Virus record (IMG/VR): IMGVR_UViG_3300013126_000012
Location: 95,587-159,586 of that record
Length of the DNA stretch: 64,000 bases
Reading direction: 5' to 3' (one strand)
Origin: a virus
Every line of letters starts with the position of its first letter. The stretch's first letter is position 1. The notes under the pieces were generated by a model, which was given only the letters and a program-made list of their open reading frames with translations, did not search any database and was not told the origin of the DNA. This document shows positions 12,035 through 55,390 of the stretch, piece after piece. Position numbers and translations under genes: made by a program.

Positions 12035-12577
12035 TTACCAATCAATCATTACAAGTTTATTATTCCACACCATCACGTTGTCAGTTTTAAAATCTAAATC
12101 TAATTCTAAATCTGGAATATCTATTTTTTTAATGTCTTGTTGTAATGCTCGTAAAAAATTAATCAATTGAATATTTGTGTCGCGAGCACCATCTGCATCT
12201 AAAAAATCAAATATCGAAACTTCACCGCCTTGCTCTTGCGCATACGTTTTATAATTAGCAATGAATCGATTAACGACTATTTTTTGGTTACTTGATAATT
12301 CCGATGCTTTAGCCATTATATACATGTTATTTCCATCTACATAATATACCGGAATAAAAGTTGTATATCTGCTATAATTATCTACTAATTGTTCAGCAAC
12401 TCGGTATTCTTCTGTTTCTGTAGTTATTTTAAATAATTTATCTTCACCTTCAATTTCGTATACACGTCCATTATCGCCTTGTCCAAACAAAGAAAATTGT
12501 TTATTTTTAATTTTTTGCAAGATTCTGTTTAAATCTTTGCTATCTATTTCTACAAGTAAATTTCGTAAACGTATCAT
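12035..12577 (-). CDS. Minimal protein-kinase-like enzyme
   Basis: GQGDNGRVY, FKIT, DFKTDN catalytic loop, MIDW; leader MIRLRNLLVE. Confidence 0.7.
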   Translation of the reverse strand: MIRLRNLLVEIDSKDLNRILQKIKNKQFSLFGQGDNGRVYEIEGEDKLFKITTETEEYRVAEQLVDNYSRYTTFIPVYYVDGNNMYIMAKASELSSNQKIVVNRFIANYKTYAQEQGGEVSIFDFLDADGARDTNIQLINFLRALQQDIKKIDIPDLELDLDFKTDNVMVWNNKLVMIDW

Positions 12578-29636: not shown

Positions 29637-30662
29637 TTATTCTAAAATTAATTGGGCGTTTTGACAACATTCAACATTCAACGCAATCAATGATTGTTCT
29701 TTAGCCTTAGCTTCAACCATAACATCAAGATCTGCAACACCATATGTAGCAGGAAGCCGCGTAATATAGTCGGCATGAGCCTGCTCCTTGATCTTGGTAA
29801 ACTCCTTGTATTGTTTGTGAAATGTAGGCCATTTGGGCAAGTCGGCAATGTCAATGTTGTGATGTGCAAACATACGCTCAATAAGAATTTGTGCTTCGCG
29901 TCGACGAGACTCGCTGTAATGAGTACATTGTGTGACACCATGACGTTGCCATGTCTCACGCGCCATAAAAAATGCTTCTTGTTCGGATAAGTCACCAGTA
30001 TTGAATGTGTGATGCCAATAGTCAAACGTAATAGGTATAGCAATTTCGGTATGCAACATGGAATACAATTCGCGCACGGAATACATGGAGGCCTTGTCAT
30101 CATTCTCGATAACTAAACGTGCCTTGCAAGAATCTGAAAGACGATCATAGTTATGTAACCACCGTGCAATGGTGCCGGGCTTGTCATTGTAAGTAGCACC
30201 AACGTGAATATTGATCTTGTTCTCAAAGCTAGGAGCAAAGCCCATCATATCAAAGAGCTCAGAATGCCGTTCAAGACCAGTGATGCTATTATCAACTACC
30301 GTAGCATCAGGACTACCTAGGATATGAAATGGACCAGGATGCGTTGTGATGCGATGGCCATGCGCACGAGCAAAGTCACCAGCAGCACGTAGATGCTGCA
30401 CAATAAGATCGATGTCAGGCAAATCTGCAAGCTCGTAATGATTCCAACGAGGAAAGAGCTCAGAGCCTAAACGAAACAAACGAATACCATGTGCTTCATT
30501 CCATTGCAGAATAGTTAACAAATCGCGGGCATTAGCAAGAGCAATGTCGGATGCTAATTGCAAACCGCCTAATTTAAATTTGCGATCAATCATGGCACGA
30601 CCGGTACGAATACCTTGGGCGGATAACTCCATGTTGATACAGGCATAACCATAACGTATCAT
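29637..30662 (-). CDS. uvsE: UV damage endonuclease (UvdE/UvsE)
   Basis: GYACIN, FRLGS, HPGPF, INIHVG, IENDD, FDYWHH, HYSES, AHAD, VEAKAKE. Confidence 0.93.
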   Translation of the reverse strand: MIRYGYACINMELSAQGIRTGRAMIDRKFKLGGLQLASDIALANARDLLTILQWNEAHGIRLFRLGSELFPRWNHYELADLPDIDLIVQHLRAAGDFARAHGHRITTHPGPFHILGSPDATVVDNSITGLERHSELFDMMGFAPSFENKINIHVGATYNDKPGTIARWLHNYDRLSDSCKARLVIENDDKASMYSVRELYSMLHTEIAIPITFDYWHHTFNTGDLSEQEAFFMARETWQRHGVTQCTHYSESRRREAQILIERMFAHHNIDIADLPKWPTFHKQYKEFTKIKEQAHADYITRLPATYGVADLDVMVEAKAKEQSLIALNVECCQNAQLILE

Positions 30663-30696
30663 ATATGTTTTATTTTATATTATGTAAAATGTTTGA

Positions 30697-30857
30697 AAAA
30701 TCCAAATTACGTTATTTTTTTTTGCATGATATTTATATGTAATAAAAAGGACGTAATGAAAAATATTTTATCAGAAAACATGTTGCGTTTCGGAACCAAA
30801 AACTTATCCGAAGCTGCACAACGGCAACTAGTTGTCAAATCAATCATGGAAACCATT
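30697..30857 (+). repeat. Cassette repeat, copy 1 (divergent promoters + constant leader)
   Basis: 30697-30782 near-identical to 31897-31981; 30771-30857 identical to 33364-33450. Confidence 0.9.
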
Positions 30858-31337
30858 AATCAGCATGGATTGCATAACGCCGTACGACGAAGGCTGATGG
30901 AACAGACCGTTAACGAGAATGTAACAACGTACGTTGAAAACTACCGTAAGGCCGTTATAACAGCTTTTCCGAATACGTTTGCCAATGTGGCGGGGAAAAA
31001 CGATGCCACCGGATACATACCGTTTCCCGGAAATAACCCTCAAGAATACATATATGTTTATACAAATGGAGCAGTAACATTGCCTAACGATGCACCAAAA
31101 TTGAAGACCCAGCTACAGAATGTGCACGATAAGGTTGTATTAAATGGCGTTAGCAATAACGATGCAAACTTAAAGAAATATATTGCTAATCTTACGCAAA
31201 ACCAATACCCACCCGAAACTCCACAAGGAATAGCATTAAAATCATTTAATCAACCCAATATTATAGCTATGAACAAGGCATTTTTGGCTTATAAAACATT
31301 TTTGGACAGCCAAAACCCGCCAGCAGCAAGCCAGTAA
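30756..31337 (+). CDS. Constant-leader/variable-body late protein 1
   Basis: MKNILSENMLRFGTKNLSEA leader; ATATTTAT at 30729. Confidence 0.8.
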   Translation: MKNILSENMLRFGTKNLSEAAQRQLVVKSIMETINQHGLHNAVRRRLMEQTVNENVTTYVENYRKAVITAFPNTFANVAGKNDATGYIPFPGNNPQEYIYVYTNGAVTLPNDAPKLKTQLQNVHDKVVLNGVSNNDANLKKYIANLTQNQYPPETPQGIALKSFNQPNIIAMNKAFLAYKTFLDSQNPPAASQ

Positions 31338-31392
31338 TCAACAGCTAAGATGGTAAAAAAGCCTTAATTTTTAAGTTTTAAAATATACATAG

Positions 31393-31420
31393 AAAAAGCT
31401 CTATAGCGGAGCTTTTTTTT
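31393..31420. terminator. Bidirectional intrinsic terminator
   Basis: AAAAAGCTC-tatagcg-GAGCTTTTTTTT between convergent genes. Confidence 0.75.
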
Positions 31421-31434
31421 GTGTTCAATAAATT

Positions 31435-31848
31435 TCAATATGTTTTAATAATATCAAAATCAATCCATTTCTGATATTTCACTAAATCATCAGTAAACCA
31501 ATACCAAGTAACTGATTGATGCCCTGTCATTTCAATCAATAAACCATTATCCCATGCATCTAATATTTTAACCTGGATCGTGTTGTTTATTTTTAATACA
31601 GAAATTGGTGATTCATACGCGAGTTTGTTGTCTTTAAATTTTGTTAAATGATTGTTGTTTAAATCTAAAACATACAAATTATTAACTTTTCTAGGAGATT
31701 CTTCAATCATCCTCGGATTTGCAAAAACTTCAGAAACAGTTTGCGAAGAATCTCCATAAAATGATTGAACTTCATTGACTTGAATTTTTATTATTTGTGA
31801 CTGAATGTTTGTAACAAATAAAATAGCAATACACACTAAACGTTTCAT
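31435..31848 (-). CDS. Signal-peptide protein A
   Basis: MKRLVCIAILFVTNIQS-Q; paralog of 32788-33207. Confidence 0.75.
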   Translation of the reverse strand: MKRLVCIAILFVTNIQSQIIKIQVNEVQSFYGDSSQTVSEVFANPRMIEESPRKVNNLYVLDLNNNHLTKFKDNKLAYESPISVLKINNTIQVKILDAWDNGLLIEMTGHQSVTWYWFTDDLVKYQKWIDFDIIKTY

Positions 31849-31954
31849 AACTGGTTAACTTTTTAATTATATTACAATAATATAAAATAAAAGATTAAAA
31901 TCCAAATTACGTTATTTTTTTTGCATGATATTTATATGTAATAAAAAGGACGTA

Positions 31955-32785
31955 ATGAAAAATATTTTATCAGAAAACATGCTGCGGTTTGGAACCAAAA
32001 ATTTATCTGAAGCAACCATACGAAGATTAACTGAAGCTGAAGACCCAATTGATCCGGCAGCAATTGGCTTTCCGAATTGTCCTGCAAAAACTGTGAAAGA
32101 CTTTGTTGATTGGTATATAAAATATCTTACACCATCAACTGGTTGTGTTGGACAAACATTGCTTATCATGAAACCAGAATTTGGATCGTTCAACCTATAT
32201 GAAAAAAATTTGGTTGCAAGTATTGTTGGAAAAGTAACAGTAGCATCTAGTTTTAATTTTTCATATCGATCAGGGAAAACCGATCCTCAAGGTACGACTA
32301 AGGATTCTTCCGTTTTCATATGGGATACTGCAGCAACTAGAAATTATGATTGGGCTAAACAAACAGTAAAAATTAGCGATACTGAAACATACCTCCCGGG
32401 TTTATACAATGTACATGACATGGTGGATGCTACATTATCTTTAGTACCAAATGGTGGGGTTGCCGTGCAGAGCTATTCAATTCCAGTACTTGTTGGTGGT
32501 ACTGATTCTAGTCAGACTATAGACACAGACCCTATATCAAAAAAGAAAGCCGGTACAATAAAAATCACCCAAAACGGAAATGTATCTGGAGCAATATCTG
32601 GAGCACCCATTACGGGTATTTTTCCATGGGTAGATTTATGGACGTTAATGCCAACCAATTTGGACGGATATGGGTTTACCATGGCTGCTGGCGGCATCGA
32701 AGTTCCGATACAAACCGACGCGTCTATGAAAGATTGGATTGCTAAAAACATGAAAAACGGAAAATACATAGGACCAAAAGAATAG
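31955..32785 (+). CDS. Constant-leader/variable-body late protein 2
   Basis: Same leader; ATATTTAT at 31928. Confidence 0.8.
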   Translation: MKNILSENMLRFGTKNLSEATIRRLTEAEDPIDPAAIGFPNCPAKTVKDFVDWYIKYLTPSTGCVGQTLLIMKPEFGSFNLYEKNLVASIVGKVTVASSFNFSYRSGKTDPQGTTKDSSVFIWDTAATRNYDWAKQTVKISDTETYLPGLYNVHDMVDATLSLVPNGGVAVQSYSIPVLVGGTDSSQTIDTDPISKKKAGTIKITQNGNVSGAISGAPITGIFPWVDLWTLMPTNLDGYGFTMAAGGIEVPIQTDASMKDWIAKNMKNGKYIGPKE

Positions 32786-32787
32786 TA

Positions 32788-33207
32788 TTACTGCGATTTT
32801 GTAATTTTAAACTTAGTGTATACGATGTATCTAGTATTTAAATCTATTTTTTCTTTATACACCAGGCTTTCGTTCATTGGATCTGGGTTCCACATTAATA
32901 GGCCTGGGTAGTAAGGATTTAGTATATAGATATAAACCAATCCATCGGCATTCACTACGTTTACAGGCCAATCAGAAATCAAAACGCCTTTAAAATACCA
33001 ATCATGATGATTGTTTGACACGTCAATAACATATCTTGAATGTTTGGTTAGTTTTGGTGAAGATTGACGATTGATAGGGTCTAAAATTTGAGACATTGTT
33101 AATGCAGAATCTCCAAAAAATGTTTGACCTTCAGTTATTTGAATTTCAAGAATTTGACTGTATGCCGAAATACTACTTAATAAAAACAATAATAATAGCC
33201 GTTTCAT
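32788..33207 (-). CDS. Signal-peptide protein B
   Basis: MKRLLLLFLLSSISAYS-Q; paralog of 31435-31848. Confidence 0.75.
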   Translation of the reverse strand: MKRLLLLFLLSSISAYSQILEIQITEGQTFFGDSALTMSQILDPINRQSSPKLTKHSRYVIDVSNNHHDWYFKGVLISDWPVNVVNADGLVYIYILNPYYPGLLMWNPDPMNESLVYKEKIDLNTRYIVYTKFKITKSQ

Positions 33208-33348
33208 AACTGGTTAACTTTTTAATTATATTACAATAATATGAAAACGTTTCCGTGATTCCAAATTTCATTATTTTTTTTTTTGTATGATATTTATTAT
33301 TGTTAACAAGAACATATTTATTAAAACCCCATAAAGGAATACAAACAA

Positions 33349-34044
33349 ATGAAAAATTTACTTTCAGAAAACATGTTGCGTTTCGGAACCAAAAACTTAT
33401 CCGAAGCTGCACAACGGCAACTAGTTGTCAAATCAATCATGGAAACCATTGATGAACATGGTTTGCATGGTGCTATTCGTCGACGTTTAATGGAACAACA
33501 GGTACCTGCTGATCCAGCATGGATGACTAAAGCTAAAGACGCATTGGCATCTCAAAATATACAAGACGGTAAAGAAATGTTATCAGTAGGGATAATTAAG
33601 AAAGGATCAACATATGTAAATCCAGAAAATATAGTGGCTTCTGGTGGAATGTCGTTTCCAAGTTCAAACGGATTTTCTGTTGCAGCAAAAGGTGCCACGT
33701 GGTATCCGTCACCAACTAACACAGTGGCATTCTGCTCAGCAATGTTTTTTGCTAATGAAGATATAATACAAAGTTTAATTTCAAAAGATGGGGGATACGA
33801 TCAGGCTAAATTACAACAATTACTTGCCGGAACTTATAAACACAACGGTACCGTTGTTACGGGACAAAAATCTAATATTGTTTGGTATCCATCAATTCCA
33901 TCATATGTGGCAACCGGAGGTGGTAGACTGTATGTTTTTACTGGAGACGGTGATGCTATGAGGACCGCAATGTTGGCACCATATGCAACAAGTCCTGGTA
34001 AGAAAGGTGATGTTCCAGCGGTATATACTCCAAGTGGGCAGTAA
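33349..34044 (+). CDS. Constant-leader/variable-body late protein 3
   Basis: MKNLLSENMLRFGTKNLSEAAQRQLVVKSIMETI; ATATTTAT at 33290. Confidence 0.8.
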   Translation: MKNLLSENMLRFGTKNLSEAAQRQLVVKSIMETIDEHGLHGAIRRRLMEQQVPADPAWMTKAKDALASQNIQDGKEMLSVGIIKKGSTYVNPENIVASGGMSFPSSNGFSVAAKGATWYPSPTNTVAFCSAMFFANEDIIQSLISKDGGYDQAKLQQLLAGTYKHNGTVVTGQKSNIVWYPSIPSYVATGGGRLYVFTGDGDAMRTAMLAPYATSPGKKGDVPAVYTPSGQ

Positions 34045-34060
34045 ATAAAAAACAAACACA

Positions 34061-34092
34061 AAAAATAAGGCAGAGCAATCTGCCTTATTTTA
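34061..34092. terminator. Bidirectional intrinsic terminator
   Basis: AAAATAAGGCAGA-gcaa-TCTGCCTTATTTT. Confidence 0.8.
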
Positions 34093-34109
34093 CTATGCGA
34101 GCAATCAAT

Positions 34110-34673
34110 TTATTTTACGACGATAATAACAGCATATGCTCCTTCATATACGCTATCATCAAAATAGAATCCGTATTCCGATGCAGTTGAGTCAGTCATT
34201 TCAAAAAAATCTGTATCGGTAAGGGTAGCTAAGTCAATGACGTAGTCGCAATAGGCTTTTTCTTTATTTTCGAAGTGCATTACGCGATTTTGATATAGTA
34301 CCGGTTCTAAAAGATAATAAGTATCCGGAAATTCAGCTGGCAATTCATTTTCAAACGTATGTTTAATGCTTTGCGATATTGAATCATTATGTTTCAACGG
34401 ATGTCGGTTGTATTGTGCCCGCATTTCATTCAATGCTTTTCCAAAATTCATTCGAACCGAATCCTCATTCAAGAAAACCTTCCTTTCGGTGTAATCCGTT
34501 TCATTGATGGCAACCACTTCTATCAAGGAAGATAAAAAATCTTTAGCATTGGGATCTGGTAACGTATATTTTATAATATTAGAATACCAAGGTATATTTG
34601 TTCCTACAACGGTTTGATGCTGTGCAACAACGATATTAGAAATCAATAGAATTACAAACAATAACTTTTTCAT
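34110..34673 (-). CDS. Signal-peptide protein C, possibly CAP/SCP-like
   Basis: MKKLLFVILLISNIVVA-Q; LNEMRAQYNRHPLKHND...EYGF. Confidence 0.65.
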   Translation of the reverse strand: MKKLLFVILLISNIVVAQHQTVVGTNIPWYSNIIKYTLPDPNAKDFLSSLIEVVAINETDYTERKVFLNEDSVRMNFGKALNEMRAQYNRHPLKHNDSISQSIKHTFENELPAEFPDTYYLLEPVLYQNRVMHFENKEKAYCDYVIDLATLTDTDFFEMTDSTASEYGFYFDDSVYEGAYAVIIVVK

Positions 34674-34744
34674 GGCTTTTAATTATTTAATTGGTTAATT
34701 ATATTACAATAATATGAAATTAAAACATACTATCCAACCAATTA

Positions 34745-35305
34745 TCAATCTTTTTTTATGAAGCCACTCAAGAAATCTCGCTGACGTTGGATTGCGGTAT
34801 CAAGTTCAGAATCTTTTCGTTTTTTTCCAGTTCCCGCAATATTTCCATTAGAGCTAGATTTAACAACATCTTTTCTCTCGTTGTTAGATCGGGGTGGTTT
34901 GATTGCTTTAGAATTTGTTGCAGATACATGTTTGCTACTTGCAGACTTGCTTCCGCTTTCATCTTCTGTCCTTCGGGTGTCTGTAAAAAGCTCTGTATAT
35001 GTGCTTGAATGTCCGGTTTGGATGCGTTTCCTAAGTTCATCTTGTCCAATAGATCTTGTTTCATCGATGTTGATGCATCCTGTTGTATACGCTGTTTTAT
35101 GCCCCTTGATTGAAACGCCGCACGGATAACGTGTATTATGCGATTCAACCATGTACTGAATACCCCAACTACTTGTTTTAAAAGTTTTAACATAACCATA
35201 TTTTTTTGCACCCAACCAAGTAAAGAATACTGCATCATCAATTTTAAATTGCAGTTTTTCAAACTGTTTGATGATAGCATCTGGTGCCTGTTGTTTTTTT
35301 GCCAT
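34745..35305 (-). CDS. Hypothetical protein
   Basis: 186 aa ORF in operon. Confidence 0.65.
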   Translation of the reverse strand: MAKKQQAPDAIIKQFEKLQFKIDDAVFFTWLGAKKYGYVKTFKTSSWGIQYMVESHNTRYPCGVSIKGHKTAYTTGCINIDETRSIGQDELRKRIQTGHSSTYTELFTDTRRTEDESGSKSASSKHVSATNSKAIKPPRSNNERKDVVKSSSNGNIAGTGKKRKDSELDTAIQRQRDFLSGFIKKD

Positions 35306-37912: not shown

Positions 37913-39886
37913 TTAAATATTTTCGGTACCGTAAACAATTTCTGTAGGACTATTGAACTTCCAAAAAAGATTTTTTTTACCGTATTTAAACCAACTAGCG
38001 CTCGTCTTTAAATGCATTCTTGCCATTCCGGTAGAACCAGAAACCTTCATCACTCCAGTTGAATACAATCTAAAATCAAAAAAATCAACTTCACCATCTG
38101 CAATTTCACCTGGAAAAGCTTGTTGTCGAAACCATACATATGGAACGTTATTCGAATCTAATCGCTCTCCTTTGTAAATTGATCTTATTGAGCTGCCGTT
38201 TTTTTCTTTCATGGTCTTAATTTTTGATATATCAATTGGAATACTATATTTAGAATCTTTACGGCTCATTTTTATAAATTCTTGACTATATAGATTTTTA
38301 TTATTTGTAAATTTATTTACACCTGGAGGTGCAACCTCTCCGGACTTAGGAGTAACATCCAACTTTTTATCATATGACCATTCAACATATATACCACTAT
38401 TAAACGTCCAATATTTCCCAATTGCAGCAGGAACATCTCGTGTTATAGTACCATCTGCATATAAACGATATATGGTATCTCGAGATGAATCCGCGCGGAA
38501 TGCTGCATAATATTTACCACTCTTATCTTGATATGCCCTTATAAATTTAATTGGAGTTTTAGACATACCAAATTCGAATACGCCAGAGCTTTTTCCAAAA
38601 TGCATGATTGTTTTAATATCATCAAAACTCGTTAAATTATATTTATTCCAACCATACGTTTTACTAATATTCTTTATCCATTCGGCAGTTTTAGAATATA
38701 AACCATTATATGATTTAAATTGCAATTTTTTAGTAGATACAATTTGTTGTTTAATTTGTTGAGATTGCTTAATTATCCAATCATGGCGTTCTTTTTTCCG
38801 TTTGTTTTCAACATCTTTACTACTAAGATATGGTCCTGTTAATTTTCTTACTAGATTATAAACTTCATCAGTCGAATAAGCTGGATAAAAATATTTTCCG
38901 CCTTTACTGGGCATTGCAATATTGTTAGTAAGAATCAATTGACCGATACCACGAGATTGATATAAATTTTTTATTTTTCTATAATCTTCATCATTTGCTA
39001 AATTATCATAAAATACACTTGATAAAAATTCTTTAGAATTTAATAGCCTAGGAATCGTATATGCTGATTGCTCCAATTGTATAGGTAATTTAGTAAAAGT
39101 TAATGCGTCTTTGCCTAAATCTGTAATAAACTTAATATATTCTGGGTGTTTGTTTGATTCATCGTTTGTAAAAATATATCCAATTGCATCTATATAAAGT
39201 GCTGCTTGTCTATTTTTGACATCTAATAATGCTTCGATAATCAATCCTTCATCCCAATTATAACTTTTAGTTCCAGTAGTAAGTTGCATCCACCATACTA
39301 AAGCATCGTCACAACGTTTACGTTCATCATTGGGTAAAATTGCCGGAGATTTCGATTTATCTTCATTTATCATTTCAGTTAACACGTGACCATATTTAAT
39401 TGTTCCGGCGTTTTCCGGTGGAGGTGGCGCTCCGCCGCCTGCAGGTGCTGCGCCACTTGCAGTAGATCCTTTTTCGGCCTTTGCCTGATCCGCTTTGCCT
39501 AATCCTTTAACATCATCTAATGATAATTGCAATTCTATAGTATAATCATCATTACGCCCAAATCCAGTATATGGAACAAACTTAATAATTTTTTTTCTAA
39601 ATAAACTTCGAAGAATACCTGGAGATACGTTTAATTCTTTTCCACTTCTGGCAATAAACTCACGTACTCCAGCATCCGAAGTTGAATATACTATGCCTAA
39701 ATGTTTAGAACCATATGCATCAAATTTTCCCAAGAAACGTTCTTCTGCAGGCGTAAATGGAGAATCTTTTGCATCACTTGGTGCATTATCAGTCTCCAAT
39801 GGTGTTGCTGCTGCAGCATCGCCAGCTGGAGCTTCTTGCTCTGCTAACAATGTTTTTTTGATGATATGTTCTAAATATTTTTTCAT
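37913..39886 (-). CDS. Large late protein with cleavable-type leader
   Basis: MKKYLEHIIKKTLLAE; A/P/G linkers. Confidence 0.7.
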   Translation of the reverse strand: MKKYLEHIIKKTLLAEQEAPAGDAAAATPLETDNAPSDAKDSPFTPAEERFLGKFDAYGSKHLGIVYSTSDAGVREFIARSGKELNVSPGILRSLFRKKIIKFVPYTGFGRNDDYTIELQLSLDDVKGLGKADQAKAEKGSTASGAAPAGGGAPPPPENAGTIKYGHVLTEMINEDKSKSPAILPNDERKRCDDALVWWMQLTTGTKSYNWDEGLIIEALLDVKNRQAALYIDAIGYIFTNDESNKHPEYIKFITDLGKDALTFTKLPIQLEQSAYTIPRLLNSKEFLSSVFYDNLANDEDYRKIKNLYQSRGIGQLILTNNIAMPSKGGKYFYPAYSTDEVYNLVRKLTGPYLSSKDVENKRKKERHDWIIKQSQQIKQQIVSTKKLQFKSYNGLYSKTAEWIKNISKTYGWNKYNLTSFDDIKTIMHFGKSSGVFEFGMSKTPIKFIRAYQDKSGKYYAAFRADSSRDTIYRLYADGTITRDVPAAIGKYWTFNSGIYVEWSYDKKLDVTPKSGEVAPPGVNKFTNNKNLYSQEFIKMSRKDSKYSIPIDISKIKTMKEKNGSSIRSIYKGERLDSNNVPYVWFRQQAFPGEIADGEVDFFDFRLYSTGVMKVSGSTGMARMHLKTSASWFKYGKKNLFWKFNSPTEIVYGTENI

Positions 39887-55003: not shown

Positions 55004-55390
55004 TTATCCTTTAATTTTTTGTACTATCTGCATAAGATAATTGTAACGGAACTTTGAATCATCATATGGTCCAACCAATCCTTTAAATTTGCGAATATTT
55101 GCTTCAAGTTTAGATACTTTATCAATTACTGTATCCGTTGTTGCGGGCACTCGTTGAATGCGATTAATAGCTTGGCTAATCGATTTGTCCCATTCTTTCG
55201 CTTGCATCTTAGGTGTGATGCGTTCGAAGTCTTTATATTCATTATCAAGACTAAAGTTAAATCCACCTATTTCGCGCGCGGAGCTACTCGCAGTTCCACC
55301 AAACACTGGATCTTTCATTACCTGATACGTATCTGGACCCAAGTCTTTGAAGTTTCCTTGTTCTAATAAAATCTTGTGTAAACGTATCAT
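55004..55390 (-). CDS. Late protein with leader
   Basis: MIRLHKILLE; late motif 55417. Confidence 0.7.
   Translation of the reverse strand: MIRLHKILLEQGNFKDLGPDTYQVMKDPVFGGTASSSAREIGGFNFSLDNEYKDFERITPKMQAKEWDKSISQAINRIQRVPATTDTVIDKVSKLEANIRKFKGLVGPYDDSKFRYNYLMQIVQKIKG

Follow-up and report, generated by a model that had tools for sequence, protein, structure and literature searches.

The DNA considered here (the window) is a stretch of 64,000 nucleotides, bases 95587-159586 of the 159,586-bp viral contig IMGVR_UViG_3300013126_000012, which has direct terminal repeats and is rated complete. It contains, beside a gene for the UV-damage endonuclease UvdE, three tandem cassettes, in each of which a plus-strand gene with a constant leader and a variable body converges on a minus-strand gene for an exported protein. 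The reading that best explains the whole, with a probability of about 0.5, is that of a structured recombination hotspot in which the plus-strand genes would specify capsid cargo and the facing genes envelope partners; the two kinds are called cargo genes and partner genes in what follows, and the components of this reading are of unequal strength.

The leader and the bodies behind it

An earlier note on this DNA, made from the letters alone, had held the three cargo genes to be the only credible plus-strand genes in the window, with leaders in common and bodies that diverge completely. The three are real open reading frames (ORFs; Table 1), and this description of them holds: copies 1 and 3 have 46 of 52 N-terminal residues in common and none beyond, copy 2 shares 21 of 25 leader residues, and the longest stretch of DNA identical in copies 1 and 3 measures, as claimed, 87 bp (30771-30857 and 33364-33450). 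In a greedy call over the whole AT-rich genome, 198 of 217 ORFs lie on the minus strand; among the 19 on the plus strand, only the three hotspot genes and one other are both long and leader-bearing, and the remainder encode 45-149 residues and have no supporting feature. A fourth copy of the leader, of 20 residues, lies outside the window (genome 61342-61617, minus strand) and has no facing partner.

The leader has a nested construction, a core of 7-10 residues, MKN(L/I)LSE or MIKLKNILAE, being followed by NM(L/R)RFGTKNLSE (NMLRFGTKNLSE) and, optionally, by a helical segment of 30 residues that ends in ..RRL(M/T/S)E; each of the three parts ends in L-x-E. When residues 1-49 of copy 3 were used as the query, 237 metagenomic proteins and 107 representatives of 50%-identity clusters were matched, always at the N terminus (residue 1 to about residue 55), with many unrelated body families, more than 100, behind the leader. 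At the boundary of leader and body, [LIVM]-x-E is present in all 180 long-leader homologues (with Leu in 164 and Ile in 11), Glu49 is invariant in the alignment, and the residue after the glutamate is Gln, Ala, or Gly in 161, whereas a control window deeper in the same 180 proteins has [LIVM]-x-E in only 31. The five differences between the aligned leader codons of copies 1 and 2, as read from the codons themselves, are all synonymous, and the leader is therefore under selection as a peptide and not as RNA alone.

In an AlphaFold2 model of cargo protein 3, the leader consists of detached helices of low confidence, the confidence minimum falls at residues 48-51, where the cut is predicted, and the body is well folded (pLDDT >90) with mixed strands and helices. 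The fold of this body has no match in the PDB or the Atlas, and a wide structure search aligned the leader helices only. The predicted mature bodies are mostly basic (median pI 8.95, with 71% above 8, as compared with a genome median of 6.0-6.4), whereas the partners are acidic; cargo protein 1 would have a mature form of about 143 residues with a pI of 8.75, and the body of cargo protein 2, about 247 residues, has a pI of 5.5.

Among the proteins of the phage are a major capsid protein of the Gp23 type (PF07068, E 1.2e-73) and a prohead protease of the type of T4 gp21 (PF03420, E 2.8e-34), and the glutamate of the T4 gp23 cleavage site aligns with that of V-K-E↓S in its own capsid protein (the arrow marks the cut, here and below). 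Together with the closest cultured phage, Flavobacterium phage vB_FspM_immuto (capsid proteins 56% identical), and with the signal peptides of the exported proteins in the hotspot region, which expose glutamine as in the Q-rule of Bacteroidetes (PMC5837995), these homologues identify the phage, on sequence grounds, as an uncultured T4-like myovirus with a host in the Bacteroidota; the clade as a whole probably infects Flavobacteriia of fresh water. In T4, gp21 cuts behind L/I-x-E, and the capsid targeting sequences (CTS) of the internal proteins (Ips), 10-19 residues long, are removed in this way (PMC9026906, PMC5694885). The leader is quite likely a capsid-targeting propeptide, and the plus-strand proteins would then be capsid-targeted, cleaved cargo. 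In the head module, genes for 613 and 345 residues are assigned to the portal and the scaffold from position and N terminus only; the genes between the portal-position and capsid genes have N termini that also bear L/I-x-E. A 191-residue protein encoded between the scaffold-position and protease genes (genome contig C1:87003-87578, minus strand) starts with MMNSLKKLYRDFFGLTEAAGK, which resembles the leader MKNLLSENMLRFGTKNLSEAAQR, and the leader may be derived from, or be a mimic of, a prohead core protein.

A short version of the leader, MI[KR]L.x[LI]LxE, heads at least six otherwise unrelated proteins scattered over the genome (Table 1), which include a protein with lysozyme and LysM domains (PF00959, PF01476) and a DUF5872 protein; no member has a facing partner, and the family probably adds to the capsid cargo. 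Neither the bodies nor the partners of the window, three of each, matched any family in Pfam, PHROGs, or PADLOC, no credible family match emerged for 19 other plus-strand proteins encoded in the hotspot of related loci, and a full-text literature search with the leader motif strings found no paper. For the largest body family, an annexin-like motif, KG(x)xxDDE..(V/L)..A(L/I)..I...Y, was considered and was without support from Pfam or from a PDB-sequence profile search; carriers of this annexin-recalling motif include L009:4028-4600 and L015:6001-6621 in related loci and C1:38054-39388 in the genome itself.

Facing partners, promoters, and exchange of cassettes

Loci containing the leader were fetched, 26 viral and 76 metagenomic. 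In nearly all of the long ones the plus-strand genes lie between UvdE and the gene for a conserved protein of 186 residues; the conserved hotspot adjoins UvdE in about 100 related contigs, a UvdE homologue of 340-343 residues flanks it in nearly all related loci, and every plus-strand gene in these loci has some version of the leader, then L-x-E. Where the downstream neighbour is visible (143 leader genes), 121 face a convergent minus-strand gene, 16 precede another leader gene, and 5 precede another plus-strand gene. The convergent neighbours have a hydrophobic N terminus in 103 of 121 cases, with about 9 more just below the threshold or with a mis-called start, giving about 112 with a signal peptide or membrane segment, and the rest are mostly conserved flank genes; among the other minus-strand genes of the same loci, which served as a control, the proportion was 60 of 461 (13%). 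The Q-rule pattern was likewise found in 64 of 104 partners versus 72 of 438 controls. The arrangement that the earlier note described in the window, a leader gene facing a secreted partner, is thus the usual one in these loci. In one relative (L024:3501-5871), a cargo gene and a member of the partner family that accompanies it elsewhere have UvdE between them, within the cassette, so the tail-to-tail junction can accept extra genes and leave the pair unbroken.

The signal peptides of partners A, B, and C end in ...QS↓Q, ...YS↓Q, and ...VA↓Q, so that Cys is absent from +1 in all three, and those of related partners are alike. Partners A and B are diverged paralogues (33% identity over 106 residues, E 2e-15), and C falls in a separate cluster, in agreement with the relationships first proposed for them. 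In the AlphaFold2 model, partner A is an 8-stranded barrel (pLDDT 88.7), for which only generic calycin/lipocalin-like barrels were found (Foldseek E >=1e-3, VIA Z <=8.5) and no function was assigned; matches to a PliC-type inhibitor (PhiA), to potempin E, and to lipocalins were within noise. A CAP domain in partner C is unsupported, the indications being a language-model lead only (0.92, 152 shared features) and a poor alignment to weak CAP hits. The partners in relatives include the A/B beta-barrel family, the C family, two-helix membrane peptides of 61-87 residues, rhomboid-domain proteins, and a weakly CAP-like type. Among the rhomboid partners, the Pfam scan covered the protein of L012:4523-5278 (minus strand; PF01694, E 3e-16), and those of L024:6646-7254, L025:6646-7242, and L028:4597-5175 (all minus strand) were placed with it by BLAST clustering; eight small membrane partners had no family match.

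The late motif that had been noticed before each cargo gene, ATATTTAT, stands 19-51 nt ahead of the ATGs. It is a genuine signal over the whole genome, with 53 copies along the coding (minus) strand versus 13 along the plus strand, and, as a motif only, it precedes 36 genes, including the portal gene, mostly at 14-28 nt from the start codon. All three partners have TTGGA-N17-TATTAT upstream, the other promoter class that had been attributed to them, and are predicted to be exported or membrane proteins behind a separate class of promoter; the class is also found before UvdE and about 11 genes outside the hotspot, one of them for a clamp-loader-like ATPase (by its GTGKTT motif). A sigma-70-family protein with regions 2 and 4 is encoded by the phage (window 48942-49679, minus strand) and may read these promoters; because the phage has this protein of its own, the partner promoter class may be early or middle.

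The divergent intergenic blocks are repeated as claimed, 31841-31887 matching 33200-33246 at 98% and 30716-30814 matching 31915-32013 at 95%. The three partner mRNAs would have an almost identical 5' untranslated region (UTR) (TATTATTGTAATATAATTAA...; 31849-31876, 33208-33235, and 34674-34708, minus strand), and partners A and B have their first codons, ATGAAACG, in common, so that the constant block extends into coding sequence on both sides of a cassette. At the junction of cargo gene 2 and partner B (window 32785-32788) the stops are 2 nt apart with no terminator; overlap of the two convergent transcripts is unavoidable, and either gene, when transcribed, could thereby hinder transcription of the other; pairs 1/A and 3/C have intergenic hairpins.

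Comparison with relatives indicates how such cassettes are gained and lost. Relative to L008, cassettes 2 and 3 form an insertion that begins and ends within promoter blocks (near 31889 and 34660), and relative to L010, cassettes 1 and 2 form an insertion bounded by the leader start (30755) and, in copy 3, by the promoter/leader at about 33260-33298; the DNA of L010 is 86.6% identical in the flank and 87% in a partner region, and the body core is unalignable. The proposal that units are swapped by recombination at the constant repeats is borne out by these breakpoints, which fall inside the constant blocks, and it is highly probable that cassettes shuffle there. The alternative offered with it, a simple insertion hotspot, is too weak a description: the hotspot is real but highly structured.

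Body and partner types are not independent of each other. One pair of body and partner families is matched in 11 of 11 cases, the bodies of the 'DPAW' family have a partner of the C family in 7 of 8, two body families are paired with rhomboid partners, and the largest body family occurs with small membrane peptides, which fall in several BLAST clusters, in 32 of 33. After the removal of near-duplicates, the partner family is the same in 165 of 447 cassette pairs that have the same body (393 if the small membrane partners are pooled), as compared with a mean of 31 and a maximum of 79 in 2000 permutations. The linkage holds down to body identities of 26-32% and also when a cassette takes another position in the array, and tandem cargo genes that share one partner are usually paralogues of one body family; the beta-barrel partner family occurs with 13 different body clusters. 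Conservation is tiered, at about 90% for the leader and, as medians, about 60% for the partner and 38% for the body. Fine-scale co-divergence of body and partner was not found, Spearman coefficients between their identities being 0.2-0.5 in three large families, and a mirror-tree analysis gave a weak signal confounded by shared descent.

Table 1. Features of the hotspot, in window coordinates unless marked as genome
Feature	Position	Strand	Basis or remark
UvdE UV-damage endonuclease gene, left flank of hotspot	29637..30662	-	Pfam PF03851, E 1.1e-58
Sigma-70-type promoter-like motif TTGGA-N17-TAATAT before UvdE	30677..30705	-	motif
Late-gene motif ATATTTAT, 19 nt ahead of ATG of cargo gene 1	30729..30736	+	motif
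Cargo gene 1, 193 aa	30756..31337	+	49-aa leader ending RRRLME↓Q, then unique body
Hairpin with A-run and T-run between cargo gene 1 and partner A, candidate bidirectional terminator	31385..31424	.	RNA fold
Partner A, 137 aa, Sec signal peptide with Q at +1	31435..31848	-	predicted 8-stranded beta-barrel
Divergent constant block: partner-A promoter motif (31877-31905, -) and late motif (31928-31935, +)	31849..31954	.	
Cargo gene 2, 276 aa	31955..32785	+	short leader ...KNLSEATIRRLTE↓A, then unique body
Partner B, 139 aa, signal peptide, paralogue of partner A	32788..33207	-	stop 2 nt from stop of cargo gene 2
Divergent constant block with the promoter motif of partner B (33236-33264, -) and two late motifs (33290-33297, 33314-33321)	33208..33348	.	
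Cargo gene 3, 231 aa	33349..34044	+	49-aa leader ending RRRLME↓Q, 'DPAW'-family body, pI 8.6
Perfectly palindromic hairpin with A- and T-runs, may terminate transcription in both directions	34062..34091	.	
Partner C, 187 aa, signal peptide with Q at +1	34110..34673	-	family found behind 'DPAW' bodies
Partner-C promoter-like motif TTGGA-N17-TATTAT	34709..34737	-	
Conserved 186-aa gene, starts MAKKQ..., right flank of hotspot	34745..35305	-	
Short-leader family	genome C1: 14467-15246, 15243-15647, 61647-62039, 107621-108163 (window 12035-12577), 150590-150976 (window 55004-55390), 38054-39388		

Cargo, pairing, and competing readings

According to the favoured reading, the plus-strand gene would be a late gene, the leader of which would guide the protein into the assembling head, where the gp21-type protease of the phage would cut it off after the glutamate; the small, mostly basic, hypervariable body would be packaged alongside the DNA and injected when the phage next infects a cell, like T4 Ip1-3. 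The partner gene, tail to tail with the cargo gene, would be expressed from a sigma-70-type (early or middle) promoter and its product exported or inserted into the membrane. The pair would travel as one unit, because the sole repeated DNA, the late promoter with the leader on one side and the promoter, 5' UTR, and signal-peptide start on the other, lies outside it. In the envelope of the infected cell, the partner would block or neutralise the same class of cargo from superinfecting kin, in the manner of Spackle or Imm, a role that is favoured because an envelope protein made earlier meets cytoplasm-made cargo only on its arrival from outside.

These proposals are of decreasing strength. That cargo and partner are functionally coupled is suggested tentatively, at somewhat under even chances, an exclusion or immunity mechanism for the pair seems rather unlikely, and a cognate pair for phage-phage competition, in which an injected envelope-acting protein and a matching immunity protein are polymorphic and shuffled, is decidedly doubtful. 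Of the effector/immunity-like or superinfection-exclusion system that the earlier note had proposed, the part that stands is the appearance of virion-loaded cargo (leader, cleavage motif, late motif, and T4-type protease and capsid) with exported partners; the inference of a cognate system is weakened, since co-inheritance is also expected from the cassette architecture and the partners evolve more slowly than the bodies.

It should be recognized that a number of observations weigh against the favoured reading. The bodies and partners matched no toxin, inhibitor, or defence family, and the partner families differ from one another in structure. In 107 of 132 comparisons conservation is higher for the partner than for the body, unlike the co-divergence of toxin and immunity proteins. 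Some leader genes, 16 of those with a visible neighbour, precede another leader gene, and leader genes elsewhere in the genome are without a partner. The leader and the region were absent from 50,697 cultured-phage records in DNA and protein searches, and immuto, the nearest isolate, is without the leader. Moreover, L-x-E is a short motif, an N-terminal [LI]-x-E is not significantly enriched among the genes with the late motif (9/36 versus 24/165, p = 0.14), and the lysozyme-LysM protein with the short leader could simply be an endolysin. Finally, T4 Ips act in the cytoplasm, beyond the reach of an envelope protein, and linkage of body and partner would be expected with no functional tie, because the repeats lie only outside the pair.

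The last of these points leads to an alternative, somewhat improbable, in which the cargo reading is kept and the pairing has no function: two inward-facing adaptors would exchange the intervening DNA as a block, and genes for injected proteins would be linked by descent only to early envelope genes of independent function (morons for exclusion or for envelope remodelling). This would agree with the confinement of repeats to the outside of the pairs, with a right-hand repeat that takes in the first signal-peptide codons, with the location of the breakpoints in constant blocks, and with the gap of only 2 nt that separates gene 2 from partner B, in which recombination has no substrate; it would also agree with partners that evolve at about the flank rate beside hypervariable bodies, with the association of the beta-barrel family with many body clusters, and with the shuffling of unrelated ORFs by PeSL-type cassettes in T4-type phages (PMC2839356). 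However, neutral linkage does not explain the regular occurrence of one gene of each kind per unit or the opposition of basic bodies and acidic partners, both of which favour coupling, as do two further features: where two cargo genes have one partner they are usually paralogous, and the largest body family is consistently accompanied by small membrane proteins that come from several BLAST clusters.

Two other readings dispense with the capsid. Were the plus-strand proteins receptor-binding adhesins anchored by the N terminus to the tail or a fibre, and the partners receptor-masking exclusion proteins, a constant N terminus and hypervariable remainder beside an exported non-late protein that co-varies in type would be the expected signature (PMC9586334), and bodies that evolve faster than all their surroundings, together with a model of body 3 that mixes strands and helices and matched no enzyme fold, would be accommodated. 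This is nevertheless very unlikely in view of the core MI[KR]LKxLLxE, which heads unrelated proteins genome-wide, including the lysozyme-LysM protein, and of the protease motif that ends the leader in 180 of 180 homologues; the leader is also predicted to be detached and flexible, the bodies are basic, as are DNA-associated internal proteins, and the partners have signal-peptidase-I-type sites with Gln at +1 and no lipobox, many being inner-membrane proteins (rhomboids and peptides with two transmembrane segments). Alternatively, the leader could be an N-terminal domain for docking or regulation that serves a factor of the phage or the host, or a start that favours translation, on late proteins that do not enter the virion, as might be thought from its short form on a possible endolysin and from the lack of general enrichment of N-terminal L-x-E among late genes. 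The chances of this appear slight, because the synonymous differences between copies point to selection on the peptide and not only on RNA, the glutamate at the boundary does not vary, the short leader is similar to the T4 gp24 propeptide, itself a proven one, and the T4-type protease and processed-capsid architecture are present.

Proteins injected by phages are a major source of anti-defence functions, although nearly all that is known of them comes from coliphage T4. Should the leader be a packaging tag, a motif of 20-50 residues lists more than 100 candidate families of injected proteins in phages of Bacteroidota that are abundant in fresh and marine waters, and, like the T4 CTS, it might serve for loading proteins into capsids of this kind; if the competition reading is true, the leader would be a searchable tag for the injected repertoire of a large clade of uncultured Bacteroidota phages. 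The regularity of the exported partner hints at injected proteins that, in some cases, have the envelope as their site of action, and at matching protection carried by the phages, which is a testable hypothesis of phage-phage conflict. Even if the pairing is neutral linkage, it shows bipartite promoter/targeting linkers organising a hotspot.

Relation to known phage systems

The cargo half of the cassettes is a probable distant and previously undescribed member of the class of T4 internal-protein-like systems. T-even Ips have only a packaging leader in common and occupy a genomic hotspot (PMC12373910, PMC3012670); Ip1, Ip2, and Ip3, with more than 30 variants at hypervariable ip loci, are described by Repoila 1994 as cited in passages of PMC2839356, PMC3012670, and PMC12373910 (see also PMC9026906), and repeats at T-even ip loci and promoter-cassette-mediated shuffling in T4-type phages have been reported (PMC2839356). 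The present system is like these in having small unrelated proteins that share a leader ending at an L/I-x-E site of the gp21 type, late promoter motifs, a plastic locus with repeated regulatory sequences, and homologues of Gp23 and gp21. In addition, ipII and ipIII of T4 adjoin the UV-repair gene denV (NC_000866 64939-66415; L121 2940-4416), and the locus described here adjoins UvdE; the two are unrelated endonucleases, and the UV-repair neighbour in both may reflect coincidence or a conserved neighbourhood logic.

The N termini read from the T4 genome are MKTYQEFIAE↓A for ipII and ipIII, a leader ending in ...ITE↓A for ipI, and MAKINELLRE↓S for gp24. By inspection of these, the long leader is without evident similarity to MKTYQEFIAE, whereas the short leader MIKLKNLLRE is similar to the gp24 propeptide MAKINELLRE. 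The leader also differs from the T-even CTS in extending to as many as 49 residues with three nested L-x-E sites. Further differences are the Bacteroidota host, the location of the cargo genes on the strand opposite to nearly all genes of the genome, and the usual tail-to-tail exported or membrane partner, none being present in the T4 annotation around ipI, ipII, and ipIII. It should be noted that packaging, cleavage, and anti-restriction are proven in T4, whereas packaging and cleavage are predicted for the system described here.

The proposed logic of the pair, in which a virion protein acts at entry and a pre-late envelope protein guards the infected cell, is similar to that of T4 Spackle (gp61.3) with gp5, and of Imm (PMC7677548, PMC7650644), Spackle being an inhibitor of the virion lysozyme gp5 in the periplasm (PMC7677548). 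However, the T4 genes are non-adjacent and are not organized as polymorphic cassettes, gp5 is an enzyme of the tail spike and not capsid cargo, and no enzyme domain was found in the bodies described here. In T5 pb5/Llp and gpJ/Cor, as in the present cassettes on the favoured reading, a late virion gene lies beside the gene of a small exported non-late protein and the types co-vary (PMC9586334), but the partners here are not lipoproteins, many being inner-membrane proteins, and the constant part is a protease-site leader and not a tail-attachment domain; a reading of the T5 type fits the partner pattern but not the leader.

The organization of the locus is also similar to that of the PeSL cassettes of T4-type phages, in which conserved promoter blocks of about 100 bp flank the variable ORFs of hyperplastic regions and act as recombination linkers, with breakpoints inside them (PMC2839356). 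The linkers described here differ in being bipartite and divergent, a late promoter and leader on one side being opposed to a sigma-70-type promoter and signal-peptide start on the other, and the unit between them consists of two convergent genes. This regular convergent pairing of cargo genes with exported partners appears to be new.

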